From: an uncultured Gammaproteobacteria bacterium
GTDB taxonomy: Bacteria > Patescibacteriota > Microgenomatia > CAYSOG01
Length of the DNA: 64,000 nucleotides
Assembly: GCA_964432675.1 (NCBI GenBank)
Contig: CAYSOG010000005.1
Coordinates: 910-64,909, forward strand
Direction of reading: 5' to 3'
This document shows positions 5,273 to 59,739 of this stretch, in pieces (the first letter of the stretch is position 1; every line of letters begins with the position of its first letter). Made by a program: the position numbers and the translations under genes. Under the pieces are notes generated by a model. That model was not told the DNA's origin. It did not search any database and saw only the letters and a list, made by a program, of their open reading frames with translations.

Positions 5273-5322
5273 TAGTGCCTATTAAACCCACTGTTCCAAT
5301 TACTCAATAAGGTGCATATATT

Positions 5323-6444: not shown

Positions 6445-7130
6445 AAAAGCAAATTCTCGTTACAACTAGTTGGGACGATGGCCATATCCTTGATGTAAAA
6501 CTTGCCGCCCTCTTACAGCGGTACGGCATACGTGGGACTTTCTATATAGCACCAAAACATCGGGAATTTTCGAAAGCTAACTTGCTTTCGAAGCATGATA
6601 TTAACGAAATAGGAAAATTTTTTGAAATTGGCGCTCACACGATGACACATCCCCATCTTACAAAAATACCAAATGTCATGGCCGCCCGTGAAATTAATCA
6701 GTCAAAGCACTTTTTGGAACAAACAGTAGGCAACCACATTGATTCATTTTGCTATCCATATGGTGCTTACAATGACAAAATAGCAAGCCTTGTTGCAACT
6801 TCAGGATTTCGCATAGCCCGAACAACAAAGCGAACTGTTTTTTTCTCAACCAATAACCCTTATGCTTTACCAACAACAGTGCATGCTTATACCCATCGAC
6901 AGGATCTTTTTAACATCAGCTTACTCTTACGTTACAAAACAATTACCTGGGATGCCCTAGCAAAAAGGCAATTCGATATTATAGCTGAAACAGGTGGCGT
7001 ATATCATTTATGGGGACATTCTTGGGAAATTGAGAAGTTTAATGGTTGGAACCGGTTGGAAAATGTTCTATACTATATTGCCAATCATAGACATGCTGCC
7101 CATATCACCAATGCTGACCTTCCATTATGA
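6441..7130 (+). CDS. Polysaccharide deacetylase (CE4/NodB-like)
   Basis: TSWDDGH (motif 1 variant), HTMTHPHL (H-x-x-x-H motif 2) and CYPYGAYN (motif 3). ATGA start/stop overlap with the upstream GT4. Confidence 0.65.
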   Translation: MKKQILVTTSWDDGHILDVKLAALLQRYGIRGTFYIAPKHREFSKANLLSKHDINEIGKFFEIGAHTMTHPHLTKIPNVMAAREINQSKHFLEQTVGNHIDSFCYPYGAYNDKIASLVATSGFRIARTTKRTVFFSTNNPYALPTTVHAYTHRQDLFNISLLLRYKTITWDALAKRQFDIIAETGGVYHLWGHSWEIEKFNGWNRLENVLYYIANHRHAAHITNADLPL

Positions 7131-8227: not shown

Positions 8228-8233
8228 TATTAC

Positions 8234-11805: not shown

Positions 11806-11807
11806 TT

Positions 11808-20601: not shown

Positions 20602-20602
20602 T

Positions 20603-20758
20603 TTACTGTGCCTGGAAGCGGATGAGCTTACATGATTTCTCAAGGACTGTTGCTGGTTGGGCCAAGGTGAAGGTATTGAGCTGTAACTTCTTGTTGCCAG
20701 GGCTGGTGGGAGTAGGACGGGAACTTGGCCTTGGGGTTGGGGTGGCAGATCCCCTGCC
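20603..20758. repeat. ~156-bp segment near-identical to 23178..23333 (3' coding ends of two paralogous genes)
   Basis: Read directly from the sequence: ttactg[t/c]gcctggaagcggatgagcttacatgatttctcaagga ... aaggtattgagctgtaacttcttgttgccagggctggtgggagtaggacgggaacttggccttggggttggggtggcaga. There is a ~19-bp divergent patch in the middle. Confidence 0.85.
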
Positions 20759-21874
20759 AAATAGGTTGCCAAACCAATTAGCTATGATAGCAAAGATATT
20801 TTGGTTACCTGTCGTGCTTCCTAAAACTAAGCTGTTTGAAACCGCTTGTTTAGGAACACAGCTAAACTGAATCCAGGCCCGGTAAATCTTACCTTTTTCA
20901 AGTTGCGGAATTTGGGTTTGCCATTGTGATTGGTATCGTACAAGCGTTGGTGTATTGACTGTTGTTGTCGGGTTCACCGGCCCTGATTGGCCAATGATGG
21001 TGGCATTGTCACTGTCCCCGGCACCGAGGAAGAAGCTCATATTACTGACTTTTGCTTTCTGGGTATTTGACCCTTCAACTTTGGCAAATGCTGTAAATGT
21101 TGTTTGCTTTCCAGGTATGATATCGGTATTATCCATACCGTCACACGTACAAAGCGTTTCATCAAATGGCGTCGGCGATGGACTAGGTGTAGGTGTGGGC
21201 GTTGGGGTTGGGGTGGGCGTAGGTTGGCAGACATTTTGGCCTGCCCCATTTGGCAAACATTTTGGACATCCTACCGCTTGGACACACTGACTATCGTTTT
21301 GGCATATCATACCGCAAGCCGGCGGTGGTGTTGGTGTTGGTGTAGGTGTCGGCGTTGGTGTTGGACTTGGTGTTGGTGGTACCTGACAAATAGAGTGTGC
21401 AATATCATTTGGATTTGGCAAACATGCCGTACATTGGCCGGCTAGGGAACAGTCATTATTGGAATTGCAACTTGAACCACAAGCAGGTGGAGGCGTTGGT
21501 GTCGGGGTTGGGGTCGGTGTTACCGGGTTGGTAATTATCACTGACCCACCGTTTTGGCATGTTAGTGTTAATGTACCATCAGGATTTTGGGTTATTGTTA
21601 CAGCACCATCGGCACCTGCTGCTGCCGTACCGGCTTGCGCTGCTTGTTCAAGCGTAGCTCCCGAAAGTAATGCATTTTTGACCGCCGTGACGATATTAAT
21701 CCAGGCGGGCATGTTTGGCACCGTATTAATATTCGGTATATAGTCGCCAAATCCACCATAACTCAAGTTTCCATTTAAAACTTCCCGCTGTGCATAAGCA
21801 ACATTAGTTAATCGTGTAGTACTCACGATTCCAAGACTTAAAAGTAATATTGCTAGAACTAACTTTATTCTCAT
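20603..21874 (-). CDS. Secreted modular protein: signal peptide, Pro-Thr linkers, repeated 6-Cys modules, conserved beta-domain and conserved C-terminal tail
   Basis: Signal peptide MRIKLVLAILLLSLGIV. Modules of the form ACGSSCNSNNDCSLAGQCTACLPN are separated by PTPTPT linkers. The C-terminal 50 aa are nearly identical to 23178..24494. Confidence 0.7.
   Translation of the reverse strand: MRIKLVLAILLLSLGIVSTTRLTNVAYAQREVLNGNLSYGGFGDYIPNINTVPNMPAWINIVTAVKNALLSGATLEQAAQAGTAAAGADGAVTITQNPDGTLTLTCQNGGSVIITNPVTPTPTPTPTPPPACGSSCNSNNDCSLAGQCTACLPNPNDIAHSICQVPPTPSPTPTPTPTPTPTPPPACGMICQNDSQCVQAVGCPKCLPNGAGQNVCQPTPTPTPTPTPTPSPSPTPFDETLCTCDGMDNTDIIPGKQTTFTAFAKVEGSNTQKAKVSNMSFFLGAGDSDNATIIGQSGPVNPTTTVNTPTLVRYQSQWQTQIPQLEKGKIYRAWIQFSCVPKQAVSNSLVLGSTTGNQNIFAIIANWFGNLFGRGSATPTPRPSSRPTPTSPGNKKLQLNTFTLAQPATVLEKSCKLIRFQAQ
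21176..21376. repeat. Imperfect tandem GGTGTT/GGGGTT-type repeats encoding Pro-Thr linkers (coding microsatellite)
   Basis: ggtgtaggtgtgggcgttggggttggggtgggcgtaggt and ggtggtgttggtgttggtgtaggtgtcggcgttggtgttgg. Similar tracts occur at ~21490-21530 and ~23756-23815. Confidence 0.7.
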
Positions 21875-23130
21875 GATTTAATAAGCGATTGAAATTCTTG
21901 GTTTGCTGCCAGTCCTTCAAAAAATTTGTACTTGACATCATTCCTGGCGGTTATCTTTATACCTGGATTTTCCTCAATGGCCTGCTTAACAAATTGTAAG
22001 GCAAGCGTCTGGTTACCGAGCTTTGAAAGCGTTTTTGCAAATTCATAGCTGAGCCTTGCTTTCATGCCTGTTTTGTCATTTTGCGTTAAAAGCGTATTAT
22101 CATTGTCTATCCTTTTTAGGGCGTAGGCAAAGTAACCAGCCGCTTCCTTATCATAGCCACCGGCACGAACGACGATACCGATTAAGTAGTAATTTTCGGA
22201 AATCTTCGGATTTAGGGCAATCGCTTTTTTTAAGGCATTCACTCCTTCATAGGTGTGCCCATTGATCGCCATGAGGTATCCATACTGTGCTGCAGCTGGA
22301 GCAAAGGAGGGGTCTGCCGCTACAGCTTGCTTAGCAAACCCAATTGCCTTATCCATGGAAACAATTTTTGTCTGTTCTATTGTCGCCATGTTTGTGAAAG
22401 CTTCTGATTTAAGTTGCGCCGGTATAGTCGGCTGTTGCGTGGCCTGCTGGAAATACGTGAACGCTTCAGTAACATTACCCTTTCTTACACTTTGGCGGGC
22501 TTTTGCTAAAACGGCCTGGGGATTTTTAGGATCTAAAGCATAGGCTTTGTCGTATGCTTGGAAGGCACTTTGCTGTTGGCCTAGAAACTCTAGGACGTGG
22601 CCTTTATGGAACCAAGCTTCGGGATTTTTACCGTCAACCGCTATAGCTTTATTGTAATAACCCAGCGCTTCGGTGTATTTGCCGGCTGTTTCATTAATAT
22701 ACCCTGCTGCCAAAAGGACATTGACATCATTTGGATATTTGGCTAAAGCTTGATCGATGTATTTTTTTGCACTATTAAATGCACTTGTCTCATCACCACT
22801 TAAATTACCTTTTTCTGCTATTGTGGTAATTAATCCAGCAAACAGGCTTGGGTCTTGCTGCATACCAAGTGCTTGCGTGAACTTCTTTTCTGCACTAGTG
22901 TAATTACCACCGTTATAATCTGCAGCCGCGCTTGCCCCAAGCGTTAAAGCGGCTGATTGGTTATTCGGTTTGTTAAATTTCAAGACCAAAAGGGTAATAA
23001 CAACCAATACGGCTCCAATGATAAGACATACCAGTAGCACATTCCCCTTCGGATTATTATTGTCAGATTGTTGGTTGGAAGATAATCCTTGAAGTAGTAG
23101 ATTTTTTTCAGCCTTTATGTCATTGCGCAT
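21871..23130 (-). CDS. Membrane-anchored tetratricopeptide-repeat (TPR) protein
   Basis: N-terminal TM helix, then multiple TPR-like repeats with the recurring pattern A..Y..A...P....A. It overlaps the upstream gene's stop by 4 bp. Confidence 0.75.
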   Translation of the reverse strand: MRNDIKAEKNLLLQGLSSNQQSDNNNPKGNVLLVCLIIGAVLVVITLLVLKFNKPNNQSAALTLGASAAADYNGGNYTSAEKKFTQALGMQQDPSLFAGLITTIAEKGNLSGDETSAFNSAKKYIDQALAKYPNDVNVLLAAGYINETAGKYTEALGYYNKAIAVDGKNPEAWFHKGHVLEFLGQQQSAFQAYDKAYALDPKNPQAVLAKARQSVRKGNVTEAFTYFQQATQQPTIPAQLKSEAFTNMATIEQTKIVSMDKAIGFAKQAVAADPSFAPAAAQYGYLMAINGHTYEGVNALKKAIALNPKISENYYLIGIVVRAGGYDKEAAGYFAYALKRIDNDNTLLTQNDKTGMKARLSYEFAKTLSKLGNQTLALQFVKQAIEENPGIKITARNDVKYKFFEGLAANQEFQSLIKS

Positions 23131-23177
23131 ATTTTAATACTATCACTCTACCTTTTAAGACTGCAACAATGGCATAT

Positions 23178-23333
23178 TTACTGCGCCTGGAAGCGGATGA
23201 GCTTACATGATTTCTCAAGGATGAGGGAGGGTTGGCCCAAGGTGAAGGTATTGAGCTGTAACTTCTTGTTGCCAGGGCTGGTGGGAGTAGGACGGGAACT
23301 TGGCCTTGGGGTTGGGGTGGCAGACCCCCTGCC
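23178..23333. repeat. Partner copy of the near-identical 3' coding segment (see 20603..20758)
   Basis: Direct comparison of the two segments. Confidence 0.85.
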
Positions 23334-24494
23334 GATCAGACGGCTAAACCAGCTGCCAATGATATCCCAGATACTCGAGTTTTGGCTAGACGATCCTAAG
23401 ACTAAGCTGTTGACCGTACTGGCTGGACCCTTTTGGGCACAGTCAATTTGAACCCAGGCCCGGTAGATCTTACCCTTTTCCAGTTGGGGAATTTGCTGCT
23501 GCCAAGTTGATTGGTAACGGACAAGGTTGGGATTGTTGGCAATGACTTGGGACTGAACTGGTCCTGATTGGCCAATGATGGTGGCATTGTCACTGTCCCC
23601 GGCACCGAGGAAGAAACGGATGTCGTTCACTTGGGCTTTGGAAGTATCAGCCCCTTCTACCTTGGCAAAGGCCGTAAAGGTTGTTTGTTGGCCTGGGGTA
23701 ATATCAGTCGTATCCATACCATCACACTTACACATATCAGGGCTAAAGCCTGGTGTTGGGGAAGGAGTTGGTGGGGATGTTGGTGGTGGGGTTGGCGGTG
23801 GGGTTGGAGGAACCTGGCAAGTATTAATGCCACCACCGTTTGGCAGACATGCTGTGCACTGGCCAGCTAATGAACAGTCGTTGTTATTGTTACATTGACT
23901 ATTGCAAGCTGGAGGCGGCGACGGTGATGGGGTCGCTACGGGACAACTGCAGCTAGTGCTATCTTGGCAAGATGGATTTCGGCATTGGCCCTGGAAACAA
24001 AATCCGGAAGCACAATCCGAATTCCCTTGGCATGTGGCATTACAGGCTAAATTTGGTTGCGGCGTTGGTGTTGGTGGAACTTGGCACGTATTTTGGCCGC
24101 CGCCGTTTGGTAAGCAGGCGGAACATTGGCCAGCTAATGAACAGTCGTTGTTATTGTTACATTGGCTGTTACAGGCCGGCGTGGTTGTCGGTGCAGGTGT
24201 GGGGTTCTGGCAGGAATCAACCTTACAGTTAATCCACCCATTGCTACATTGGAAATGATAAATGCCGACGTTACCGGTGGCGGGCTCGCACTGGTCATCT
24301 ACCGGTACACAAATTTGGTCTGGACGACACTGGTTACCACAAACCTCAGGAACAGCATTACTCACAGCAATAGCTTGCGGTGCTGCGGCAAACCACACGA
24401 TCATCGATACTAACACTGAGAAAAAGGCAATCATAATGCGGCTTGTCTTACTAACGCCGCGCCAAACTCGTTCACCTTTTTTTATAAAGGACAT
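23178..24494 (-). CDS. Secreted modular Cys-rich / Pro-Thr-linker protein, paralog of 20603..21874
   Basis: It has the same 6-Cys modules (ACNSQCNNNNDCSLAGQCSACLPNGGGQNTCQVPPTP), the same beta-domain (CDGMD..FTAFAKVEG..FFLGAGDSDNATIIGQSGPV) and the identical C-terminal tail. The N-terminal region differs. An alternative start at the signal-peptide Met is ~24434. Confidence 0.7.
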   Translation of the reverse strand: MSFIKKGERVWRGVSKTSRIMIAFFSVLVSMIVWFAAAPQAIAVSNAVPEVCGNQCRPDQICVPVDDQCEPATGNVGIYHFQCSNGWINCKVDSCQNPTPAPTTTPACNSQCNNNNDCSLAGQCSACLPNGGGQNTCQVPPTPTPQPNLACNATCQGNSDCASGFCFQGQCRNPSCQDSTSCSCPVATPSPSPPPACNSQCNNNNDCSLAGQCTACLPNGGGINTCQVPPTPPPTPPPTSPPTPSPTPGFSPDMCKCDGMDTTDITPGQQTTFTAFAKVEGADTSKAQVNDIRFFLGAGDSDNATIIGQSGPVQSQVIANNPNLVRYQSTWQQQIPQLEKGKIYRAWVQIDCAQKGPASTVNSLVLGSSSQNSSIWDIIGSWFSRLIGRGSATPTPRPSSRPTPTSPGNKKLQLNTFTLGQPSLILEKSCKLIRFQAQ

Positions 24495-24495
24495 A

Positions 24496-25731
24496 TTACC
24501 CTGTCCCTTTCAATAAATATAGTAAATAAAGCGTATAAGCGCTATCGGACGTTAAGATATAATGTTCTGTTCCAGCCCCCATCGCAATCGGCCTAGCCAT
24601 AAATATCGTCCCGCCTTCGCCATAAATTTTCTTTTGCTGCTTGCCATCATAAAACGTGTTCATGAAAAATGCCATGAGTTTTTTCCCTGTATCATTATAA
24701 GACTTGTCATTTGTTACCTGCGCCATCTCGAAGTAACTCTCAATACATGGCTGGATTTCTACCGGGTTTATGAATCCGTCGTAATCCTTCGTTAAGTCGT
24801 ATGTTGCCATCGATTGTTTCACCGCCTGTAAAATTTGGGGGTTATTTTGCCGGCCAATGTCGATGCCGGCCAGCCAATACCAGCAACCAAACTGCGGAAA
24901 ATGAGGGCCGGTTACATAGTAAAGCGGTACTTGTTGCTTAAAGGTGTTTTGAGCCAAATCGAAGCGCTTGATCGCTTCCTGCATGTATTGTGTGTTGTGG
25001 GTGATCTCAGACACGAGCGCCAACTCCCGTGCCTCAATAGTAAGCAGCATATATTGGGTATTGGGCGGTGTTTTAGTAAGCAAGTCGGCTTCCTGATTTA
25101 AAAACGTCAAAATAGCCGGGTCTTTGGTCTCGCTATACAACCGAACCGGTTGGTCTAATATCCAAAGACACTGATTTCGGTTTGCAGCACACCAAGTATT
25201 AAGCGATGCGAAATCGGCTTTCGCGAGCTGCAAGTATTTGGGATTATTTTGCATTTTATAACCTGCTAAATAACCTAACATTGTCCAACTATTCGTAGTC
25301 TGAAATACTTGCTGGCCGTTGAATGGACACACGCTTTGACCATTTTTAGGAATGCACTGATTATTGTACCGTGAAATGTAATTATAAAACCCATCTTTGC
25401 GCTGCATACTCTGCAAGTAAAGCAACGAGGTAAGCGTGACCGCTGTAACTGCTGAAGGATCATTTTTGGCAATTTGGCCGCCAAAACCGCCTTCCCTCGC
25501 TGCTGCTGCTCCACCGGCCGTTCCCTGCTTAGAAGCAGCATTTTTACCTAAACGGAGCAATAGCAACAGCAATGCCGTCACAATGACTGCAACAATACCT
25601 ATCGGCAACCAATATTTTCGAAAAAATGAAACTTTCTGTTGTATACGCGGTTGACTAGGAGATTCTAAAGGCGGTTGCGGTGTTTGATCCTCTGGTGTGA
25701 TTGGTGGTTGAGATGTAGATTTGTTATCCAT
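24496..25731 (-). CDS. Type II membrane protein with Pro-rich cytoplasmic N-terminus and large extracytoplasmic domain (function unknown)
   Basis: Pro/Gln-rich N-terminus, a single TM helix (IGIVAVIVTALLLLLL) and a ~330-aa extracellular domain with several Cys and Trp. No firm motif. Confidence 0.45.
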   Translation of the reverse strand: MDNKSTSQPPITPEDQTPQPPLESPSQPRIQQKVSFFRKYWLPIGIVAVIVTALLLLLLRLGKNAASKQGTAGGAAAAREGGFGGQIAKNDPSAVTAVTLTSLLYLQSMQRKDGFYNYISRYNNQCIPKNGQSVCPFNGQQVFQTTNSWTMLGYLAGYKMQNNPKYLQLAKADFASLNTWCAANRNQCLWILDQPVRLYSETKDPAILTFLNQEADLLTKTPPNTQYMLLTIEARELALVSEITHNTQYMQEAIKRFDLAQNTFKQQVPLYYVTGPHFPQFGCWYWLAGIDIGRQNNPQILQAVKQSMATYDLTKDYDGFINPVEIQPCIESYFEMAQVTNDKSYNDTGKKLMAFFMNTFYDGKQQKKIYGEGGTIFMARPIAMGAGTEHYILTSDSAYTLYLLYLLKGTG

Positions 25732-28671: not shown

Positions 28672-29682
28672 CTAAAGCCCTGGAATTGGTTTCATGTCAG
28701 AATGCACGCGACCAAACGCTTGTTGTCTGACTTGTTGGATATCTTCCCAGAGGTCTACCTTTTCCCAAGTTGGTCTGTCACGAACATCATGTTGGATAAG
28801 TTGCGCGATAAAGCTTCTGACCGGGTCTGGTACCTCCTTAGGCAAAGACCTTGCTTGGACCATCTCTGGCTTACCACTTAAGGCAAATAGCATGGTCATA
28901 CCCAAACTGTAAAAGTCAGATTCTGGCAAAAGCGGTTTGCCTGCAATTTCCTCAGGAGGTGCGTAAATTTCGGTGTACCCTTTGGACTTCGAACCTGCCG
29001 AAGGCTTAATAATCGAAAGCCCGTAGTCTACAACAACCACCATGTGGCTTTCATGCTGGATGATAATGTTTTGCGGTTTAATATCTCCGTGGACAACACC
29101 ATGGAAATGAAGAAATTTCAGTGCATTAAGGACGCGCTGAGCAATCCAGCAAACATCTTCTGCATCAAGCCGCCCAACTTTCTCAATAATTTCGGCAAGG
29201 GTAAAGCCTGGAATATAGCTCATGACCAATGCCAGGCTACCGTCAGGCAAACGCAGTATATTGCGCATGGCTGGAACGGAGTAATGCCGCAAGTCCCACA
29301 CTGCCTTGGCTTCTTCAATTAAGATCTGCTCATGGAGTGGGGAAATTTCGGAACAATGCTTGATGCATACCGGCTCGTTGAGCAAGATTTGCTCACCGCG
29401 GTAGGTAATGCCGAAGCCACCCTCTGCGATTTTATCCAAAATGCGGTATTCACCAATAATCTTGCCATCAAGCTGCCGCGAATCCATATCATAGGCTGCA
29501 CGTTTCTTTGGGTCGGATAATTTATCGTATGCTTCATTAAGGAGAACCGCGATCCGATCAGTATCATCAACTATCCCATTTGGGAAATGGGCTTTCATTA
29601 AAGCCCGGTATGCCCCGGTAATTACTTCCTGTTGAGCCCTTGGGTGAACTTGCAAAACTTCATAAGGGTTTTGGTCAGGCAT
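28672..29682 (-). CDS. Hanks-type Ser/Thr protein kinase (non-RD: HGD catalytic loop)
   Basis: GEGGFG Gly-loop, VCIKHC (VAIK Lys), HGDIKPQNIII, DYGLS (DFG variant) and YAPPE (APE). Confidence 0.8.
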   Translation of the reverse strand: MPDQNPYEVLQVHPRAQQEVITGAYRALMKAHFPNGIVDDTDRIAVLLNEAYDKLSDPKKRAAYDMDSRQLDGKIIGEYRILDKIAEGGFGITYRGEQILLNEPVCIKHCSEISPLHEQILIEEAKAVWDLRHYSVPAMRNILRLPDGSLALVMSYIPGFTLAEIIEKVGRLDAEDVCWIAQRVLNALKFLHFHGVVHGDIKPQNIIIQHESHMVVVVDYGLSIIKPSAGSKSKGYTEIYAPPEEIAGKPLLPESDFYSLGMTMLFALSGKPEMVQARSLPKEVPDPVRSFIAQLIQHDVRDRPTWEKVDLWEDIQQVRQQAFGRVHSDMKPIPGL

Positions 29683-36203: not shown

Positions 36204-38891
36204 TCATCTACCATGACATTTCTTATATTTTTTGCCGGAGCCACAGGGGCATGGGTCATTGCGGCCGACTTTGGTGGGGCGGGAAGTGGCTTGGGCAAAG
36301 GCGCCGGCGGGTGCGGCACCATTTGGAGCTGGTTGAACGCCTGGCTGTTGTTGGGGTTGCACTTGGACTTTGAAAATGCGGCGGATAATTTCGTAGTCAA
36401 TTTGGCCAAGCAACTTTTCGAACATGTTGTAGGCTTCGGCCTTGTATTCGACGAGTGGGTCTCGCTGACCGTAACCACGCAAGCCAATGCCTTCGCGCAA
36501 ATCTTCAACGGCATCTAAATGGTTAACCCATAAATTGTCAATGACAGACAAATAGACAGCTTTCTCAATTTCTCGAGAAAGTTGCGGACCGTATTGTTGT
36601 TCCCGCTGCTCGTAGACTTTTTTGGCAAGGTCGAACAAGAAATCGCTAACTTTTTCAGCATTCACCTGCTTGGCTAATTCCTCGCGTAATTGTTTTTGTG
36701 AAGATTCATCAAAGGGAATGATCAGTAAAAATTCTTGCAATATTTTATCGTAGTTAATTTCAGTAGTACCTTCTTCATTGGCGAATACTGTTGTAATGGA
36801 CCTAATTTCGCTATCGAGTTTGTCCATGACTTCATCGCGCAAGAATGAAGGTGGTTGCTCGCTGACTGTGCTCTTTTTGGACTTACCATCTTCAGCTGGT
36901 ATTGCTGTTGTGGCTTCTAAAACTTTTTTGCGCAAACCATATATTACTTCACGCTGCTTATTCATGACGTCATCGTATTCGACAACGTTTTTGCGGATAT
37001 CAAAGTTATGGGTTTCAACCTTTACCTGAGCTTGTTCGATCGCCTTTGAAACCATACCAGCTTCGAGTGGTACATCTTCTGGCAACTTAAACATTGTCAT
37101 GAGCCTGGAAACCTGGTCGCCACCGAATAGGCGCATAACGTCATCTTCTAAGGAAACGAAAAAACGGCTTTCCCCTGGATCACCTTGCCTGCCTGAACGG
37201 CCGCGGAGCTGATTGTCAATGCGTCGCGATTCGTGTCGCTCAGTTCCAACTACAAATAATCCACCGGCTTCGCTGGCTTTATTATCGAGCTTGATATCAA
37301 CACCACGGCCGGCAATGTTCGTCGCTAACGTAATAGCACCATGCCGACCACCTTCTGCTATAATTTTGGCTTCATGTTCGTGGTTTTTGGCATTTAGGGT
37401 TTGATGCGGAATTTTCTTCTTGGTTAACAATTTTGATAATGTTTCATTTTTCTCGACTGAAGTGGTGCCAATTAATACTGGTTGGCCTTTCTTGTGGACC
37501 TCGTTCACTAAGTTTGCCACAGCATCAAATTTGGCCTTAGCAGTTTTGTAGACGACGTCGGAATGGTCTTTGCGAACCATCGGCTTATTTGTTGGGATTA
37601 CGACAACATCCAAATTATAGATTTTATGTAATTCCTCAGCTTCAGTAACAGCGGTTCCGGTCATACCGGATAATTTTTCGTAGAGGCGGAAATAATTCTG
37701 GAAGGTAATCGTCGCCATGGTTTTTGACTCTTGCTTAATCTCAACGCCTTCCTTAGCTTCGACCGCTTGATGTAAGCCGTCAGACCAGCGCCTGCCAAAC
37801 ATTAACCGGCCGGTGAATTCATCAACGATAACAACTTCGCCTTCTTTAATTACATAGTCGCGGTCTTTTAAGTAAAGCGTTTTGGCTTTTAAGGCTTGTT
37901 CAATATGGTGGATTGTATCAAAGTCTTTTTCATATAGATTTGTAACACCAAGCAATTTTTCAACTTTCAAAATACCGTCTTCTGTTAATGCGGCAGTCTT
38001 TAATTTTTCGTCAATGGTGTAGTCTTTTTCTGCAGAAAGCTTTTGGACAAGGGAAGCAAATTCGTAGTACTTTTGGGTGGGCTCGGTGTCGGGTGCTGAA
38101 ATAATCAGTGGTGTTCGGGCTTCGTCGATAAGAATAGAGTCAATTTCATCAACAATCGCGTAAACATGGCCGCGCTGGACCATATCACCTAAACTATAGA
38201 CCATGTTGTCGCGCAGGTAATCGAAACCATATTCGTTATTCGTGCCGTATAAAATATCGGCCAAGTAGGCATCGCGGCGGTTGGCTTGGCGCAGGAACCG
38301 GCCAACTCCTAAACCACCCTCGTCAGGGCTTAAGGCAACATCTTCTTCAAGATGGACTTCTGTTTCTTCCTCTGTCGTTGATTTTGGATTTGGATCGTAA
38401 ATAAAAGATTTTTCGTGGTTAATGGCGGCAACACTAATACCTAAGGCGTGGAAAATCGGGCCCATCCACTCGGCGTCACGACGCGCGAGATAGTCATTGA
38501 CCGTCACAATGTGAACTCCGCGGCCGGTTAGGGCATTTAAATACGCTGCAGTTGTTGCCGATAGCGTTTTGCCTTCCCCTGTGCGCTGTTCTGCAACCTT
38601 CCCTTGATGTAAGGTAATACCGGCAACAAGTTGGACATCATAATGACGCTGGCCAATTGTTCGGCTGGCAGCTTCACGAACGCAGGCAAATGCTTCTGGC
38701 AGTAAATCATCGAGTGTCTCACCGCGTTCTAAACGCAGCTTAAACTCTTGGGTCTTGGCTTTTAACTTTGCATCAGAGAGTTTTTTGGTTGCGGGTTCAT
38801 GACTATTTATAGCATCAACAAGCGGCTTTAAGCGGTTGATTTCCTTTTCGTTAGAATCTAAGACCTTTGATAAAATATTAAACATAGTCAA
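36204..38891 (-). CDS. secA: Preprotein translocase ATPase SecA
   Basis: DEAD-like motor motifs, the wing/scaffold region and the C-terminal zinc-binding tail CPCGSGKKYKKCHG. 895 aa. Confidence 0.95.
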   Translation of the reverse strand: MTMFNILSKVLDSNEKEINRLKPLVDAINSHEPATKKLSDAKLKAKTQEFKLRLERGETLDDLLPEAFACVREAASRTIGQRHYDVQLVAGITLHQGKVAEQRTGEGKTLSATTAAYLNALTGRGVHIVTVNDYLARRDAEWMGPIFHALGISVAAINHEKSFIYDPNPKSTTEEETEVHLEEDVALSPDEGGLGVGRFLRQANRRDAYLADILYGTNNEYGFDYLRDNMVYSLGDMVQRGHVYAIVDEIDSILIDEARTPLIISAPDTEPTQKYYEFASLVQKLSAEKDYTIDEKLKTAALTEDGILKVEKLLGVTNLYEKDFDTIHHIEQALKAKTLYLKDRDYVIKEGEVVIVDEFTGRLMFGRRWSDGLHQAVEAKEGVEIKQESKTMATITFQNYFRLYEKLSGMTGTAVTEAEELHKIYNLDVVVIPTNKPMVRKDHSDVVYKTAKAKFDAVANLVNEVHKKGQPVLIGTTSVEKNETLSKLLTKKKIPHQTLNAKNHEHEAKIIAEGGRHGAITLATNIAGRGVDIKLDNKASEAGGLFVVGTERHESRRIDNQLRGRSGRQGDPGESRFFVSLEDDVMRLFGGDQVSRLMTMFKLPEDVPLEAGMVSKAIEQAQVKVETHNFDIRKNVVEYDDVMNKQREVIYGLRKKVLEATTAIPAEDGKSKKSTVSEQPPSFLRDEVMDKLDSEIRSITTVFANEEGTTEINYDKILQEFLLIIPFDESSQKQLREELAKQVNAEKVSDFLFDLAKKVYEQREQQYGPQLSREIEKAVYLSVIDNLWVNHLDAVEDLREGIGLRGYGQRDPLVEYKAEAYNMFEKLLGQIDYEIIRRIFKVQVQPQQQPGVQPAPNGAAPAGAFAQATSRPTKVGRNDPCPCGSGKKYKKCHGR

Positions 38892-50597: not shown

Positions 50598-52691
50598 CTA
50601 CGGGCGAAGGAAACGAACTATGAGGAGGGCGACTATGTTCATAACTTTAATCATAGGGTTTAATGCAGGCCCGGCAGTATCTTTGTACGGGTCACCAACC
50701 GTGTCACCGGTTACGGCTGCTTGATGGGCAAAACTACCCTTGCCACCTAAATTACCAGCTTCTATGTATTTCTTAGTATTATCCCAAGCAGCACCGCCCG
50801 TGGTCATGGATATGGCCACAAAAATACCGGTTACAATTGAACCAACCAAAAAGCCTCCAAGAGCTCTTGCATTTAAGGCCGTGCCAACCAAAATTGGTGC
50901 TATGACTGTGATAAGGGCCGGGATAATCATGTTAATTTGCGCGCGCTTGGTAACAATCGAAACGATCGCGGCATAATCAGGCTTGGCTTTGCCACTCATG
51001 ATACCTTTAATTTCTTTAAACTGGCGGCGAACTTCAAAAACTACAGCTTTGGCACTATTGCCGACTGCTTCCATGGCAAAGGCTGCAAAGAGGAACGGAA
51101 TACTGCCGCCTAAGAACAAACCAATAAGGACATACGGATCACTGAGAAGAAACTGGACCGAGTGGCCAAAAGTCCGGAGTTCTTGGGTGTAAGCTGAGAA
51201 AAGAACTAATGAAGCAAGAGCCGCCGAAGCGATAGCGTACCCTTTCGTCACCGCTTTGGTTGTATTGCCTACGGCATCAAGTGGATCGGTAACATCACGG
51301 GCCGATTGGGGCAAGTTCGCCATTTCGGCAATGCCGCCGGCATTATCAGTAATTGGGCCAAAGGCGTCAATTGCCACAACAATACCAGTTAGCGACAACA
51401 TTGAAACTGCCGCAATTGCGACACCGTACAGGTTTGCCAGTGAAAAGGCAAGCAATATTGCCGCTGTTATAACTAAAATCGGTGCAAAGGTTGACTTCAT
51501 ACCGACCGCTATACCGGCAATAATATTAGTGGCATGGCCAGATTCTGAAGCCTGGGCAATGCCTTGCACCGGACGAAATTTCTTTGAAGTATAGTATTCG
51601 GTTATTAAGACCATCAAAAATGTCACGGCAATGCCAATAAGCGATACGAAGTAGATATTTATGGCAGAAAGGTTAAGCTGGTTATCACGCATTAAGACCA
51701 TGGTGATTGGATAGAACAATAACCCTGCAATAACTGCTGACACGATGAGGCCAAAATAAAGCGCCATCATAATAGAGCCATTTTTTGGCAGGCGCACGAA
51801 AAAGATACCGATGATTGTGGCAACTATGGAAGCTGCGGAAAGTGCTAATGGATAGATAAGAGCGTTGGCAAAATTTGGAAAAATCAGCGAGCCTAATAAA
51901 ATTGCGGAAGCAGCTGTTACAACATATGTTTCAAATAGGTCTGCGGCCATACCAGCAGTATCACCAACATTGTCACCAACGTTGTCGGCAATAACAGCAG
52001 GATTTCTCGGGTCGTCTTCGGGAATATTTTGTTCGACTTTTCCAACTAAATCCGCACCGACATCGGCTGCCTTTGTATATATCCCGCCGCCTAGTCTGGC
52101 AAAAACTGAAATTAAGCTGCCACCAAATGACAAGCCGATGAGCGCTTCAACACGACCCTGGGTTAAGGCATAGGTTGCCGCAATAACCAGTAGCGCTAGT
52201 CCAACCAATATTAAACCGGTAATCGAACCGCCGCGGAAGGCCATATCTAAAGCACTCGACAACCCCTTTGTCGCTGCCTGAGCCGTACGCACATTTGCAC
52301 GAACCGAGATATTCATGCCGATAAACCCGGCCAGTGCCGAAGCAATAGCACCAACCAAAAAACCGATTGCCTGATAATTACCAACAAAATAATACAATAA
52401 GCCAAAAATAATCACGGCAACGACGCCAACAATCATGTATTGTTGGCGCAAATAAGAAGTTGCACCTTGTTGAATAGCCTGGGCAATTTCTATCATCTTG
52501 GCGTTACCTTGTGGTTGCCGTAATACCCATAGCGATAAGAAGATGCCAAACGCTATAGCTAATACCGACGACCCAAGTATTGTCGCCATGGCATTGGTCT
52601 GCGAAAATAATAATCGGAAAATCTCCATGTATTTATTAAGTTTACAAGCTTTGTTTGAAAAATGTAAAGCGGCCAGAAAGGGGTAGTACAA
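50598..52691 (-). CDS. hppA: Membrane-bound proton/sodium-translocating pyrophosphatase
   Basis: [50 protein letters not shown] and ~15 TM helices. The true start may be at an internal Met (~52628 or ~52589). Confidence 0.9.
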
Positions 52692-54335: not shown

Positions 54336-56117
54336 TTAATGGCCATGGCTTATATCTTGGCCATGTTTGGCAATTGCTTTCGGCAGGGATATTGAAGCGA
54401 GTAACCCAAGCAAGGCGAATAACGAGACCAGTAAAAATGCCGTTTTAGCCGAATCAACTGTTGCCTGCTTGATAATAGCGCTAACATCGGCCGCAACTTT
54501 GGGCGGCAGTACGTTCGATGATAAGGCGTTACTGCCAAATTCAATATTCGTTGATTGCTTTGTAACTACTTGCTCAATACGAGACTTATACGCCGGTGGC
54601 ACAACCTGGCTAGTCGCAATATTTGTATTAACGTTTGAAACGATAAGCGAAAGCAGCACGGCGCCGATAATAGAAGAACCAAGGGTCGTACCAACCTGGC
54701 GTACCGTATTATTAACACCGGCAGCTTCACCAGCTTGCTGGACCGAAACGGCTGATAGGGTTAAGTTACTAATCGGTGCCATAACCAATCCCATACCGCA
54801 TCCGTAAAGGATGAGGCCAGGCGCTAAGCTGATTATCGAAGCGTCAACACCAAAACTTTGTCGCATGACCAAAACCGCAATCGCGTTTAACAAAAGACCA
54901 GCCTGGATTAACCGCTTGGGTGATATTCTTTGGCTTAATATACCAGAAAGTGGCGCCACAATAAGCATAGGTGCTGACATAGGCGCCATGGCAAAGCCGG
55001 TATGCAAGGCGTCTAAATGGGCCACTGATTGTAAATACACTGGCAAGGTAAAAATTAATCCCATCATACCAAGCGACATAATACCTGTTGTTAATACTCC
55101 GGCGGTAAATGCTCGATTGTGAAAAATCTTCATCGAAACTAATGGCGTGCCTCCGACACGGTCAACATGTAATTCCCACTCATAGAATAAGTCTAAAAAC
55201 AGCAGCCCAAATAATATCGCGATCGGCGTAATTGAGACGCCAAAAATATTAAATGACCATGCACCAAGTGCAATGTCTTGCTTTGAAATAAACCAGCCAT
55301 ACGTCGATGACTCAATAACACCCCAGGCCACTGAAAGCAAACCAAACGCAGAAAGCAAAACGCCAACAATATCAAGTTTTGGCTTCTCTTCCACATCCCG
55401 GGATTCTTTAATAAGCACCGAACCAATTAAAAGTAATGCCGCAACAACAACATTAATCCGAAATGCCCAACGCCAACTGAATTCATTTGTTAAAAAGCCG
55501 CCCAAGATCGGACCGATGGAAGAAGAAGCCGCGGCAATGCCACCCCAAATACCAAATGCAATCGCCCTATCTCTTCCTTGAAAACTAGCAACCAAAAGTG
55601 AAGCTGTGGCTGGCAGCATTAAGGCGGCTCCAATGCCTTCAATAACCGATTCACCTGCTAATAGCGTGCCGACATTTGGGCTTATCGATGCAATAAATGA
55701 GCCAACGGCAAAGATTGCCGCTCCTGCCATAAACATTTTTTTGCGGCCAAATAAGTCACCTAACCTGCCGCCAGTAATCGTTAAGGAAGCTAACATTAAG
55801 GCATAAACGGTAATAACCCACTGTAAACTTTGGATATTGGTGTGCAATTCATGAATAATAGTCGAAAGCGAAACGTTGAGGACTGTTGTATCAATGATAA
55901 TAATTGCCAATGCTAAACTAAGAACGATAAGGCTGCCCCACTTTTTCAGGAAGCTTGGGTGGACTGGCACAACTTCCTTGAAGTTGGACGTTTGATCATC
56001 ATCAGTGTCTGTCATATTAACAGCCTGATTGTTAGCCGGGCTTTCGAATGGTTGTGGAGGAAGTTCTTCTTGTTCCATCATAAGCGTTTTTTGTTGGGCA
56101 ATGGTATATGGTAGCAT
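54336..56117 (-). CDS. MFS transporter, 14-TM DHA2/EmrB-like
   Basis: GRLGDLFGRKK (motif A), 14 TM helices, and an extended N-terminal cytoplasmic tail. Confidence 0.8.
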   Translation of the reverse strand: MLPYTIAQQKTLMMEQEELPPQPFESPANNQAVNMTDTDDDQTSNFKEVVPVHPSFLKKWGSLIVLSLALAIIIIDTTVLNVSLSTIIHELHTNIQSLQWVITVYALMLASLTITGGRLGDLFGRKKMFMAGAAIFAVGSFIASISPNVGTLLAGESVIEGIGAALMLPATASLLVASFQGRDRAIAFGIWGGIAAASSSIGPILGGFLTNEFSWRWAFRINVVVAALLLIGSVLIKESRDVEEKPKLDIVGVLLSAFGLLSVAWGVIESSTYGWFISKQDIALGAWSFNIFGVSITPIAILFGLLFLDLFYEWELHVDRVGGTPLVSMKIFHNRAFTAGVLTTGIMSLGMMGLIFTLPVYLQSVAHLDALHTGFAMAPMSAPMLIVAPLSGILSQRISPKRLIQAGLLLNAIAVLVMRQSFGVDASIISLAPGLILYGCGMGLVMAPISNLTLSAVSVQQAGEAAGVNNTVRQVGTTLGSSIIGAVLLSLIVSNVNTNIATSQVVPPAYKSRIEQVVTKQSTNIEFGSNALSSNVLPPKVAADVSAIIKQATVDSAKTAFLLVSLFALLGLLASISLPKAIAKHGQDISHGH

Positions 56118-56191
56118 AATCTAAGTATCATGTCATTAGAGGAGTACTTAGAACACTTCGGCTTAAAACCATTTACTCAAAGTATTCTCAG

Positions 56192-56671
56192 GTGGTTTTC
56201 AGTAGCTACCACTATACTTCCTTATTACCCATGAAAAAATTCATTTTGGTAACAGCTGTTATTACTACTTTTGGGCTATACGTTATTGAATATCGGTTCG
56301 GTGGTAGAGATGACATCAATGTTGTGCCTCCTGCCACGGTCATACCAAACACCAGCACGACCGGTGGACCATCGGCAATTGCAAAATATAAAGATGGATC
56401 ATATATAGGCCCTAGTACTGACGCATTTTACGGTAACGTGCAAGTTAAAGCTATTATTAGCGGCGGTAAAATTACCGATGTCCAGTTCTTAGATTACCCA
56501 CAAGACAGGCAAACCTCGATAATAATTAACGGCCAAGCAATGCCGTACTTAAAACAAGAGGCCATCCAATCACAAAGTGCAAAAGTCGATATCATTTCAG
56601 GAGCAACACAAACAAGTATGGCTTTCCAACAATCATTGCAATCGGCGCTTACAAATGCCAAAACTCAATGA
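56192..56671 (+). CDS. Membrane-anchored FMN-binding domain protein (ApbE flavinylation substrate type)
   Basis: N-terminal TM helix, then an FMN_bind-like domain ending in DIISGATQTS, which is the [ST]GAT flavinylation motif. The likely start is at the internal Met at 56231. Confidence 0.6.
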   Translation: MVFSSYHYTSLLPMKKFILVTAVITTFGLYVIEYRFGGRDDINVVPPATVIPNTSTTGGPSAIAKYKDGSYIGPSTDAFYGNVQVKAIISGGKITDVQFLDYPQDRQTSIIINGQAMPYLKQEAIQSQSAKVDIISGATQTSMAFQQSLQSALTNAKTQ

Positions 56672-57408
56672 AACAAACACAAATCTTAATGGGCATGCCA
56701 ATCAGTGTTGAGATTATCGATAACCATATTCCAGCAGATACATTTAATATGGTTTTCGATTATTTCCGATATGTCGATGAGACGTTTAGTACATATAAAC
56801 CATCAAGTGAAGTAAGCAAGATTAACAGAGGTGAAATGTCACCAGAAATTTTAAGTCAAGATATGCGAGAAATCCTACAACTATCTGAAAAAACCAGAGT
56901 TGAAACAAAAGGGTATTTTAATATTAGGCATAAAGGGCAATTGGACCCTTCTGGTATCGTAAAAGGTTGGGCTATTAATAATGCAGCAAGGCTTCTAAAA
57001 AATGCTGGTTATAGAAACTACTACATAGATGCCGGCGGCGATATTCAAGTGGAAGGGAAAAATAGCCAAGGACGAGCTTGGACCATCGGTATCCGAAACC
57101 CATTTAAGGTAGATGAGATTGTAAAGGTTTTATCGGTTAAAAATTGCGGTGTTGCTACTTCCGGGACATATGAACGGGGGCGGCATATTTATAATCCAAT
57201 GGCTAACGGAAAGCCGGTAACTGATATTGTCAGTATCACCGTAATTGGCCCAAATATTTATGACACTGATAGATTCGCAACCGCAGCCTTTGCCATGGGT
57301 AGTCAAGGTATCAAGCTAATCGAAAAATTGGATGGGTTTGAGGGGTACATGATAGACAATAAAGGTATTGCAACAATGACAAAGGGGTTTGAGCAATACA
57401 CAAGATAA
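56668..57408 (+). CDS. ApbE-family FAD:protein FMN transferase (short form)
   Basis: GIVKGWAINNAARLLKNAGYRNYYIDAGGDIQVEG matches the ApbE core (xKGxAxD...GGD). ATGA overlap with the upstream gene. Confidence 0.6.
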   Translation: MKQTQILMGMPISVEIIDNHIPADTFNMVFDYFRYVDETFSTYKPSSEVSKINRGEMSPEILSQDMREILQLSEKTRVETKGYFNIRHKGQLDPSGIVKGWAINNAARLLKNAGYRNYYIDAGGDIQVEGKNSQGRAWTIGIRNPFKVDEIVKVLSVKNCGVATSGTYERGRHIYNPMANGKPVTDIVSITVIGPNIYDTDRFATAAFAMGSQGIKLIEKLDGFEGYMIDNKGIATMTKGFEQYTR

Positions 57409-57426
57409 CGAGTAAGATTTTATGGT

Positions 57427-58944
57427 ATGAAAATCATTGATAATTTTCTTAACAACATTACAATGTACCGGTTGGTGCTCTATTATTTGGCCTTATTAGT
57501 AGTTATCGCGGCAATTTTGAGCGCCTTTGGTATCTTGGCATTTAACTTGTTTGCCATCATCGGCTCAACAATTTTCCTTATAGCGGTCTGTTGGATAACG
57601 AATACCATTTTTGCAAAGACCTATAAAGCACATACGAACGTTGATTCTGTTTATATTACGGCACTCATCTTAGCCTTGATCATAACACCGATCAGAACAC
57701 CATCGGATATTATATTCTTTGTCTGGGTCGGGATTTGGGCAATGGCCTCAAAGTATATCGTTGCCCTTAACAAAAAACACCTATTTAATCCAGCAGCCTT
57801 TGCTGTTCTACTTACGGCTATAACGCTAAACAACTCGGCAAGTTGGTGGGTTGGAACTAGTTATATGATGCCGTTTGTGCTTTTGGGTGGTTTGCTGATT
57901 GTACGAAAACTTGGTCGGTTTGATATGGTCTTCAGTTTCCTTGTGGCCTCGCTTATTACTATCGTTGGATTTAGCCTAGTTAAAGGCACTCCAATTATTA
58001 CTATTTTACAAAAAACATTTATAGACTCCCCTCTTTTATTTTTTGCATTCATCATGCTTACCGAACCACTAACTACTCCGCCATCCAAGAAGTTACGCAT
58101 TATTTACGGCAGTATTGTTGGCGTGTTATTTTCGCCTCAGCTGCAAATTGGTGGATTGTTTACCACACCCGAATCTGCTCTTATTTTAGGAAATGTTTTT
58201 TCGTATATAGTTAGTCCAAAACAAAAACTTTTGCTTGAATTAAAGGAAAAGGTCAAAGTCGCTGAAGATGTCTATGATTTTGTTTTCCATACAAACAAAA
58301 AAGTGGCCTTTACCCCGGGGCAATATATGGAATGGACACTTGGTCACAAAAATCCTGATAGCCGCGGCAGTAGAAGGTACTTAACTATTGCTTCTTCACC
58401 AACGGAAGATAATTTTCGGATTGGCGTAAAATTTCACCAACAACCGAGTACTTTTAAGAAGTCAATGCTGACATTACCAGCTGGCAGCAATCTTATGGCC
58501 GGACAATTATCGGGTGATTTTATCCTACCCGAAGACCCAATGCAAAAATGCGTATTTATCGCAGGCGGCATCGGTATAACCCCGTTTCGAAGTATGATCA
58601 AATATTTAATAGATATCGGGCAAAAGCGAGATATTGTGCTCTTTTACGCAAACAAAACGGTGCAAGATATTGTCTATAAGAATATTTTTGATGAAGCAGC
58701 GTATAAGCTTGGTATAAGGATAATATATACCTTAACGGACCAAAACCAAATCCCAGCTAACTGGCCTGGCTACGTTGGCTACATAACCCAAGAAATGATC
58801 ACACAAGAAGTGCCGGATTATAAGGAAAGGATATTTTACCTCTCCGGCCCACGTTCAATGGTTGAAAATTTTGAGGATACATTAAACAAAATGGCTATTC
58901 CAAAAACCCAAATCAAAATTGATTACTTCCCGGGATTTGCTTGA
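57427..58944 (+). CDS. Membrane protein with N-terminal 6-8 TM domain fused to C-terminal ferredoxin-NADP reductase-like FAD/NAD(P)-binding oxidoreductase domain
   Basis: The C-terminus has RRYLTIASSP (the RxY[ST] FAD-binding motif), FIAGGIGITPFRSM (NAD(P)-binding) and YLSGPRSM. The N-terminal half is hydrophobic and nearly His-free. Confidence 0.65.
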   Translation: MKIIDNFLNNITMYRLVLYYLALLVVIAAILSAFGILAFNLFAIIGSTIFLIAVCWITNTIFAKTYKAHTNVDSVYITALILALIITPIRTPSDIIFFVWVGIWAMASKYIVALNKKHLFNPAAFAVLLTAITLNNSASWWVGTSYMMPFVLLGGLLIVRKLGRFDMVFSFLVASLITIVGFSLVKGTPIITILQKTFIDSPLLFFAFIMLTEPLTTPPSKKLRIIYGSIVGVLFSPQLQIGGLFTTPESALILGNVFSYIVSPKQKLLLELKEKVKVAEDVYDFVFHTNKKVAFTPGQYMEWTLGHKNPDSRGSRRYLTIASSPTEDNFRIGVKFHQQPSTFKKSMLTLPAGSNLMAGQLSGDFILPEDPMQKCVFIAGGIGITPFRSMIKYLIDIGQKRDIVLFYANKTVQDIVYKNIFDEAAYKLGIRIIYTLTDQNQIPANWPGYVGYITQEMITQEVPDYKERIFYLSGPRSMVENFEDTLNKMAIPKTQIKIDYFPGFA

Positions 58945-58971
58945 TCAAATATATTATCAGGAAATGGATGG

Positions 58972-59739
58972 TTAGGCCGCTAGATCGAGCCTAGTTAGCA
59001 AAGCTAGTTTTATGACTGGCTCATCAAAGTACTTACCAAAAGTTTCGGTGAGTTGTTTAAACGCAATATCTGGTGCAAGCGATGGGGAACCGGGACGGTC
59101 TGCAATCATGGCATCGGTAGTATCCGCCAATGCAACCACTTTTCGCATGGTACCCAACAATGGTAGCTCTGGCTCTTTCAGTAAATATTCCGGATACCCA
59201 TTCGGCTGATATAAATGATGGCCATGCACAACAGCAGCTACATGTTGTTCGTATGGAAGAGCTATCATATAACCATATTCAACATGTTCTCTAGCAGTTG
59301 CCTGTTCTTCGTCATCTAACTTTCCAGGTTTATTCAATATATAAAGTGGTGTGTATTTCTTGCCTCCATCATGAATTAAAGTAGCTCTTATGGCCATACG
59401 CTCAATATATTGGCTACCCAAACCTATTTTAGGTGCAACTACGGCAGCAACTTTAGCAGCATTAACCATATGCTTTGCCGTAGGCGCGTCATGTGCTGCA
59501 ACTTGGTTAACGATGTATAAAACATATGGATAGCCTTGCACCGCCTCAATCAGTGCCGGATGGTTATCAAATACATTTTCAACGGTTGGATAAACAAGAT
59601 CACTATCAGCAATACTGCCTTGTGGGGCGAATAAGCCACCAAGTTCATTTCTCATTCGCTTAGTATACCTGATAAAATGCCAGAAAAGCAAGCCAGTGCA
59701 ACCTTTTTTATAATTAAGATGCGATTGAAAGGTTGACAA
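58972..59739 (-). CDS. HD-domain protein, possibly degenerate HD-GYP-like
   Basis: LIHDGGK is an HD motif and HGHHLYQPNGYPEYL resembles the HHExxDGxGYP region. Confidence 0.45.
   Translation of the reverse strand: MSTFQSHLNYKKGCTGLLFWHFIRYTKRMRNELGGLFAPQGSIADSDLVYPTVENVFDNHPALIEAVQGYPYVLYIVNQVAAHDAPTAKHMVNAAKVAAVVAPKIGLGSQYIERMAIRATLIHDGGKKYTPLYILNKPGKLDDEEQATAREHVEYGYMIALPYEQHVAAVVHGHHLYQPNGYPEYLLKEPELPLLGTMRKVVALADTTDAMIADRPGSPSLAPDIAFKQLTETFGKYFDEPVIKLALLTRLDLAA

Follow-up and report, generated by a model that had tools for sequence, protein, structure and literature searches.

A Patescibacteria-like contig encodes a predicted NQR/RNF-like flavinylation module whose ApbE lacks a recognisable export signal

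Introduction

An "NQR/RNF-like system" has been defined by Méheust et al. (2021; eLife, PMC8238504), who reported 127 clusters, mainly from Actinobacteria and the candidate phyla radiation (CPR), recovered by a screen that required a signal on FMN_bind or ApbE; ferric iron was suggested there for clusters with VIT1. The two-subunit complex of Ktedonobacter racemifer was later modelled with AlphaFold-multimer (Huang et al., 2024; mSystems, PMC10979944, PMC11334425). According to that report, the FMN_bind flavin lies beside an NqrB-like pocket with its domain outside, and the NqrB/RnfD flavinylation site is not conserved in the family. Here, we analysed a 64,000-nucleotide stretch of DNA (contig CAYSOG010000005.1, positions 910 to 64,909; hereafter the window), in which an initial annotation, made from the letters alone, had recognised a compact three-gene module for an FMN_bind protein, an ApbE flavin transferase, and a membrane protein fused to an FNR-like domain.

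As judged from its sequence, this locus typifies the "NQR/RNF-like" flavinylation-associated system of transmembrane electron transfer, with which it shares an NqrB/RnfD-like domain fused to an NqrF-like NAD-binding domain, clustered FMN_bind and ApbE genes, and occurrence in CPR/Patescibacteria, Actinobacteria, and Chloroflexota; we found no essential difference between the two. The novelty implied by the annotation was not sustained, since the module corresponds to a system whose definition dates from 2021 and whose modelling dates from 2024. The route that it proposed, from NAD(P)H to an external flavoprotein, coincides with the published hypothesis, and electrons would flow along it as set out below.

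Results

Organization and conservation of the module

Three plus-strand open reading frames (ORFs) were verified, namely ORF1 (56192-56671), ORF2 (56668-57408), and ORF3 (57427-58944). The stop codon of ORF1 and the start codon of ORF2 overlap as ATGA, and ORF2 and ORF3 are separated by 18 bp. The annotated compact flavinylation module was borne out in its ORFs, domains, and coordinates. Neither a second ApbE gene nor a second FMN_bind gene was found within the 64-kb window, and a scan of the operon for promoters and terminators gave no signals above those of shuffled sequence.

Species-representative genomes were scanned for relatives; from the 155 stretches found to encode one, 80 loci were retained. 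The gene order FMN_bind, ApbE, fusion gene recurred in 63 of these 80 loci, from three phyla and at 49-59% identity, so that the arrangement is far beyond chance; the co-occurrence put up for checking by the annotation was thereby confirmed. An FMN_bind orthologue lies directly upstream of the fusion gene in 70 loci, seven of which have no ApbE immediately adjacent to the fusion gene. Only ApbE stands beside the fusion gene in three loci (two at a contig end), and the fusion gene is alone in seven, five of these having sufficient DNA upstream for a judgement. When all flank ORFs of the 80 loci were clustered, no fourth conserved gene or acceptor emerged, the next most frequent family being a generic ABC ATPase (19 loci).

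Several individual loci depart from the common arrangement. Lone fusion genes were observed in L003, L014, L027, L028, and L072; in L003 and L014, a 98-aa ORF comes after the fusion gene, as does a membrane-anchored ORF of 168-174 aa, which could be a different partner. In the variant cluster of L009 (4069-7515), a second FMN_bind gene stands between ApbE and the fusion gene, so that the series runs FMN_bind, ApbE, FMN_bind, fusion gene. The cultured Ktedonobacteria bacterium brp13 (AP024096.1) harbors three module copies (L020, L047, and L077), and ApbE lies between FMN_bind and the fusion gene only in L077.

The divergent pair of MFS genes noted beside the module in the annotation is real, but a conserved or functional partnership was ruled out: MFS genes lie near the module in only three of the 80 loci, and the pair in the window is thus regarded as incidental.

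By label, the 80 loci comprise approximately 42 from Patescibacteria, approximately 19 from Chloroflexota, including cultured Ktedonobacteria, four from Actinomycetota, 12 from metagenome-assembled genomes (MAGs) doubtfully labelled as Gammaproteobacteria, and three unclassified. The MAGs labelled "uncultured Gammaproteobacteria/Pseudomonadales" contributed L004, L009, L011, L014, L018, L022, L033, L048, L049, L054, L072, and L073; these labels look unreliable, because L014 has flanking genes in common with L003, a Daviesbacteria locus. The window itself is, on the evidence of its SecA (36204-38891), Patescibacteria-like, as the nearest named matches of this protein were from Patescibacteria (Woykebacteria, Curtissbacteria, and the Microgenomates group; 57-63% identity).

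The G+C content of the module is 0.38-0.40, compared with 0.43-0.46 in the flanks (region 55500-59500), and homologues of the fusion protein in Chloroflexota, Patescibacteria, and Actinomycetota resemble it to about the same extent (55-59%). The low G+C content of the module together with the even similarity across three phyla suggests that the operon spread laterally.

Membrane domain of the fusion protein

ORF3 encodes a 505-aa protein with thousands of relatives; the best 120 listed are all 493-548 aa long and 56-64% identical, and most of them carry PF00175 and PF03116 and are annotated as "ferredoxin-NADP reductase / RnfD subunit". In ORF3 itself, NQR2_RnfD_RnfE (PF03116) matched residues 150-259 with 25.9 bits (E 7.8e-6) against a cut-off of 27.7, so that a strict Pfam screen would miss the protein by 1.8 bits, and NCBIfam gave weak RsxD/RnfD matches on the membrane part. 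A profile built from 23 family members (first ~268 residues) had a sole PDB sequence match, RnfD of Azotobacter vinelandii (8ahx_D, E 7.5e-4), in which residues 152-260 aligned to RnfD 222-330, including the conserved TEPLTTPP / TDPVTSP.

AlphaFold2 models reached a pLDDT of 87.2 for full-length ORF3 and 85.5 for the membrane domain alone. In a Foldseek comparison of the membrane-domain model with the PDB, all 15 matches at E <= 1e-3 were RnfD/NqrB chains (query-normalised TM-score 0.54-0.75), and the next matches had E > 0.2. As modelled, the membrane domain has the RnfD/NqrB fold. The annotation had left the choice between an NqrB/RnfD-like and a novel domain; profile and Foldseek results support the former, and a novel membrane fold was ruled out because the significant fold matches were exclusively RnfD/NqrB. 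The membrane domain of a heme-type ferric reductase or NOX was ruled out as well, since ORF3 had no Pfam match to Ferric_reduct (PF01794) at E <= 0.01, the domain contains only two His residues (H69 and H118) against the four heme-ligating ones of that family, and the fold is that of RnfD/NqrB. The earlier description of the domain as almost His-free and not bis-heme therefore holds.

Ten membrane helices were present in the ORF3 model. In 60 homologues, the per-loop means of Lys plus Arg, added by hand, summed to 7.4 for the predicted-inside and 0.95 for the predicted-outside loops, and this concentration in the inside loops places both the N- and the C-terminus inside. Such a topology agrees with that known for NqrB/RnfD, and the inside C-terminus fits the NAD(P)H-binding C-terminal domain. 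A short outward-predicted loop (Table 1) may lie at about the place where RnfD/NqrB have the long loop with the flavinylated Thr. The motif [ST]GA[ST] was absent from the ORF3 protein and from the first 300 residues in 297 of 298 family members. Many positions of the membrane domain hold a polar or charged residue without variation, namely N59, N71, S74, K109, H118, N121, K161, E213, E249, and N256.

Searching 1.84 billion cluster representatives with the membrane-domain profile gave 1377 matches at E <= 1e-10 and 596 at E <= 1e-30, the latter being representatives at 50% identity. The best 150 representatives listed were mostly ~480-515 aa long, as expected for the same fusion, and others were shorter; judged by length, none of these 150 was a natural fusion of FMN_bind with the membrane protein (longest, 589 aa).

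FNR-like domain of the fusion protein

In the Pfam search, NAD_binding_1 (PF00175) matched residues 377-481 of ORF3 with 66.2 bits (E 4.8e-18). NCBIfam matched the C-terminal 230 residues to the reductase modules of flavohemoprotein, GbcB, BenC, Fre, and NqrF, and among PDB sequences the C-terminal half was best matched by the FAD domain of NqrF (2r6h, E 5e-11). Flavohemoglobin, the NqrF FAD domain, b5 reductase, and the SpNOX dehydrogenase domain were the best Foldseek matches of the full-length model, with target-normalised TM-scores of up to 0.83 to FNR-family modules. FAD_binding_6 had no Pfam match in ORF3 at E <= 0.01; nevertheless, the FAD beta-barrel was clear in the model and in the fold matches. 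The PF00175 match, with NqrF among the best solved relatives, upheld the annotated joining of a polytopic membrane domain to an FNR-like domain. Among the motifs cited for it, GGIGITP was found, whereas a literal RxYS was absent, RRYLT occurring instead.

FMN_bind protein

ORF1 matched FMN_bind (PF04205) in Pfam with an E-value of 9e-10. Its longest form starts at GTG 56192; the alternative ATG at 56231 (MKKFIL...) is almost certainly the true start, because nearly all orthologues begin with MKK. The nearest solved relative, 8p2a_A (E 1.1e-12), is an FMN-binding domain, and the SGAT motifs of the two align.

Hydropathy analysis revealed a single hydrophobic anchor in ORF1, and almost all of 71 FMN_bind orthologues begin with MKK followed by ~18 hydrophobic residues. 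Summed over the 71 orthologues, the net charge was +159 on the N-terminal and +4 on the C-terminal flank of the anchor, and none of them contained a twin-arginine motif. From the flank charges and the absence of twin-arginine motifs, the anchor is predicted to be N-in and the FMN domain to face outward, as in RnfG and NqrC. Many of the orthologues carry Ser/Thr/Pro-rich linkers after the anchor, which are typical of external tethers.

The motif [ST]GA[ST] was retained in 69 of the 71 orthologues, with the family consensus V-d-x-v-s-G-A-t-x-t-S. The PF04205 match, DIISGAT, and the one hydrophobic segment agree with the annotated FMN_bind protein bearing an SGAT motif and a membrane anchor. Neither of the two outcomes named as damaging to that claim was encountered: the charge pattern of the 71 orthologues predicts an outward rather than a cytoplasmic domain, and the flavinylation motif is conserved.

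ApbE and its missing export signal

ORF2 matched ApbE (PF02424, E 7.5e-45) in Pfam and solved ApbEs at E 2e-19. Related loci yielded 69 ApbE ORFs, ~62 of them full length (241-287 aa) and the others fragments, and the motifs MGxP, DPSGxVKGW, AGGD, GIATSG, and ADRxATAAFAMG were conserved in the 62 orthologues. Relative to E. coli ApbE, the window protein has no counterpart of an internal segment of roughly 50 residues.

The window ApbE begins with MKQTQILMGMP and contains no hydrophobic segment, signal peptide, lipobox, or membrane helix; the lipoprotein or Sec signal usual in characterised extracytoplasmic ApbEs, although not strictly defining them, is absent. An N-terminal extension was ruled out, as no in-frame ATG, GTG, or TTG lies upstream. 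The full-length orthologues are ~247 aa long with a similar N-terminus (MKQTR.LMGMP), and no signal peptide, lipobox, or anchor was found among the ~62 of them; the sole N-terminal hydrophobic segment among the 69 ORFs belonged to a frameshift fragment. The annotated action of ApbE on the extracytoplasmic side was therefore not supported, the protein being leaderless here and in its full-length orthologues.

According to a 2025 review (PMC12052999), characterised ApbEs are mostly lipoproteins working outside the cytoplasm, and Salmonella ApbE expressed in the cytosol failed to complement. The same review records that a leaderless ApbE of Klebsiella pneumoniae flavinylates cytoplasmic fumarate reductase and that ApbE accepts a linear seven-residue tag (PMC12052999). 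This review was the only source found on leaderless ApbE, and our literature search returned nothing on ApbE in Patescibacteria. The searchable text of Méheust et al. (2021) and Huang et al. (2024) contains no discussion of the leaderless ApbE of the module.

Table 1. Positions of the module components and motifs within the window
Feature	Coordinates	Strand	Remarks
NqrC/RnfG-like FMN_bind protein	56231..56671	+	146 aa; signal anchor, linker, FMN_bind domain; PF04205
Signal-anchor helix of FMN_bind protein (FILVTAVITTFGLYVIE), preceded by MKK	56240..56290	+	hydropathy
Flavinylation motif D-I-I-S-G-A-T	56588..56608	+	DxxSGAT; FMN predicted to be attached to the last Thr
Minimal leaderless ApbE (FAD:protein FMN transferase)	56668..57408	+	246 aa; PF02424
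RnfD/NqrB-like membrane domain (modelled), residues 1-265	57427..58221	+	10 helices; both termini predicted inside
Short outward-predicted loop, residues 134-147 (LNNSASWWVGTSYM)	57826..57867	+	no flavinylation motif
Cytoplasmic FNR-like FAD/NAD(P)H domain, residues 268-505	58228..58944	+	PF00175, NCBIfam, PDB, Foldseek
RRYLT	58372-58386	+	family consensus RRYFT in 233 of 298 members
GGIGITP, residues 380-386	58564-58584	+	motif present

Comparison with known systems

Set beside the definition of Méheust et al., ORF3 displays the NqrB/RnfD-like domain in its sub-threshold PF03116 match, its RnfD profile match, and its fold, most close homologues having a precomputed PF03116 match; the NqrF-like NAD-binding domain is evident from PF00175 and from NqrF as the best PDB sequence match, and FMN_bind, which has a signal anchor, and ApbE lie directly upstream. 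As in the family described by Huang et al., the flavinylated Thr of the membrane domain is lost while the partner keeps SGAT (69/71).

The module resembles Na+-NQR/RNF in its NqrB/RnfD fold, in the anchored FMN_bind protein with SGAT corresponding to NqrC/RnfG, in the FAD/NAD module of NqrF, and in ApbE-dependent flavinylation. A full NqrA-F or RnfABCDGE set, including NqrD/E or RnfA/E, is not encoded, only three genes being conserved; the neighbours in the window are MFS, HD-domain, ABC, and pyrophosphatase genes. The module thus lacks NqrA/D/E, RnfA/B/C/E, the 2Fe-2S domain, and the covalent FMN of the B/D subunits, and in it the B/D-like domain and the FAD module form one direct fusion. The proposed path would be one-way outward, not a loop, and ion pumping is not expected.

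The flavin-based extracellular electron transfer (EET) system of Listeria monocytogenes (Ndh2, EetA/B, DmkA/B, PplA, and FmnB) has the logic proposed for the module, leading from cytoplasmic NADH to an ApbE-flavinylated extracytoplasmic FMN_bind protein and on to external acceptors. It differs in employing NDH-2, a dedicated quinone, a lipoprotein ApbE (FmnB), and FAD export, whereas the module includes a different membrane protein and a leaderless ApbE but no quinone step. Bacterial NOX/ferric reductases (SpNOX, 8qq7) share with it an FNR-like dehydrogenase C-terminal to a membrane domain and the outward electron transfer that is proposed here; unlike them, the module has no bis-heme His ligands and no Ferric_reduct match, and its fold is that of RnfD/NqrB. 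The cytoplasmic ApbE of K. pneumoniae, which matures fumarate reductase, is similarly devoid of a signal peptide; its substrate is a soluble cytoplasmic enzyme, in contrast to the adjacent substrate of the module ApbE, which is predicted to be membrane-anchored and outward-facing.

Other features of the window

A membrane H+-pyrophosphatase (PPase; PF03030, E 4e-259) is encoded 3.5 kb from the module (50598-52691, minus strand); such a gene also lies near the module in the Doudnabacteria locus L013 (616-2613) and was not seen in the other 79 loci. A surface-polysaccharide cluster (4166-15670) comprises genes for a GT2 and three GT4 glycosyltransferases, an 824-aa DUF2206 membrane protein, a polysaccharide pyruvyl transferase, and a flippase-like protein. 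At 19342-25731 lie five ORFs in a row, with lengths of 411-438 aa, four of which were scanned and had no Pfam match; the products of 20603-21874 and 23178-24494 are paralogues with 56% identity. A 336-aa protein (28672-29682, minus strand) has a DnaJ J-domain at its N-terminus along with a Ser/Thr protein kinase domain, and two subtilase-family paralogues (2084-3319 and 17985-19205, both minus strand) are 50% identical over their full length. The remaining genes scanned were housekeeping or envelope genes.

Discussion

We assign a probability of roughly 0.65 to the reading that this NQR/RNF-like module carries electrons from cytoplasmic NAD(P)H to an external flavoprotein, a proposal built on the observed domain identities, fold, predicted topology, motif conservation, and three-gene synteny. 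The cofactor content, the direction of electron flow, the acceptor, and the site of flavinylation in the cell are those we infer. The cytoplasmic C-terminal FNR-like domain would bind FAD and oxidise NAD(P)H, and the electrons would then traverse the membrane via the RnfD/NqrB-fold domain, where the carrier would most likely be a non-covalent flavin at sites equivalent to the riboflavin/FMN sites of NqrB. On the outer face, they would arrive at an FMN covalently held by the SGAT Thr of the anchored FMN_bind protein. This flavin may dock into, or shuttle from, the pocket vacated by the loss of the RnfD/NqrB flavinylation loop and pass the electrons to an external acceptor encoded outside the operon, for which ferric iron, oxygen, or another soluble oxidant would be candidates. 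The co-translated ApbE would install the covalent FMN from FAD. Patescibacteria usually lack quinone-based respiration; a quinone acceptor is therefore unlikely in a Patescibacteria-like host, and an external oxidant or ferric iron is more plausible.

Several points weigh against this reading. The module ApbE, like every one of its ~62 full-length orthologues, has no export signal and, to judge from its sequence, fits poorly with an outward-facing substrate, and the characterised leaderless ApbEs serve cytoplasmic substrates (PMC12052999). The PF03116 score of ORF3 falls just under the gathering threshold. The distance between the FAD and the outer FMN is presumably too great for electrons to pass directly, so that an intermediate cofactor must be assumed. 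No acceptor gene conserved beside the module was found among the flank ORFs of the 80 loci, and our literature search found no experimental study of any NQR/RNF-like member.

The absence of an export signal lends itself to a different arrangement, in which all flavin chemistry is cytoplasmic: the leaderless ApbE, which has no signal peptide or anchor in the window or in its ~62 full-length orthologues, would flavinylate an inward-facing FMN_bind protein, and electrons would pass from NAD(P)H through FAD and FMN to the RnfD-like domain and a membrane acceptor such as quinone, as in a small non-pumping NAD(P)H dehydrogenase. The Klebsiella enzyme provides a precedent (PMC12052999), and it is established that NqrB holds the last cofactors before quinone in Na+-NQR. 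We nevertheless consider this arrangement unlikely, since the anchor charges of the 71 orthologues (MKK before, nearly neutral after) predict the domain outside, the architecture equals that of RnfG and NqrC, both of which are periplasmic, Ser/Thr/Pro-rich linkers occur in many orthologues, the published multimer model places the domain outside near the NqrB-like FMN pocket, and the host is Patescibacteria-like, a group usually without quinones.

A stripped-down ion pump, whose RnfD/NqrB-like domain would link the oxidation of NAD(P)H to the movement of Na+ or H+, is less probable still. NqrB is thought to couple ion movement in Na+-NQR, and the shared fold, the many invariant polar or charged residues within the membrane domain, and the H+-pyrophosphatase near the module in the window and in L013 would be in line with such a function; these residues may equally bind flavin, however, and the pyrophosphatase adjacency was seen in only one of the 80 loci. 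Moreover, NqrD/E or RnfA/E and a return electron path are absent from the cluster and its conserved neighbours, and the covalent FMN of NqrB/RnfD is lost. As for a fortuitous adjacency of three genes without joint function, to which the seven fusion genes lacking both FMN_bind and ApbE (five judgeable upstream) might point, it deserves next to no credence: it is effectively refuted by the synteny of the same-order triad in 63 loci of three phyla, with genes that overlap or nearly abut and no other neighbour conserved.

Returning to the outward NQR/RNF-like route, a paradox resides in the translational coupling of a leaderless transferase to an apparently outward-facing substrate. Because a leader is missing from all examined full-length orthologues of the dedicated ApbE, flavinylation of the FMN_bind protein may take place in the cytoplasm, to which we give somewhat less than an even chance. 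Either the linear DxxSGAT motif would then be flavinylated before export, or the accepted outward topology of the FMN_bind protein would be wrong. Possible resolutions of the paradox comprise pre-export flavinylation, an unrecognised export route for ApbE, a wrong FMN_bind topology, and a second ApbE elsewhere in the genome. If flavinylation came first and export later, FAD export would not be needed. The conserved leaderless ApbE thus poses a concrete and cheap experimental question, namely where and how the covalent flavin is installed.

As a finding, the locus adds little to a system that had already been defined and modelled. The module is probably the smallest known device possibly linking cytoplasmic NAD(P)H to extracellular redox chemistry, and it is common in the Patescibacteria (CPR), whose metabolism is very reduced and which mostly have no respiratory chain. 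If the proposed route is true, it would provide the Patescibacteria with an electron outlet or a ferric-iron reductase.

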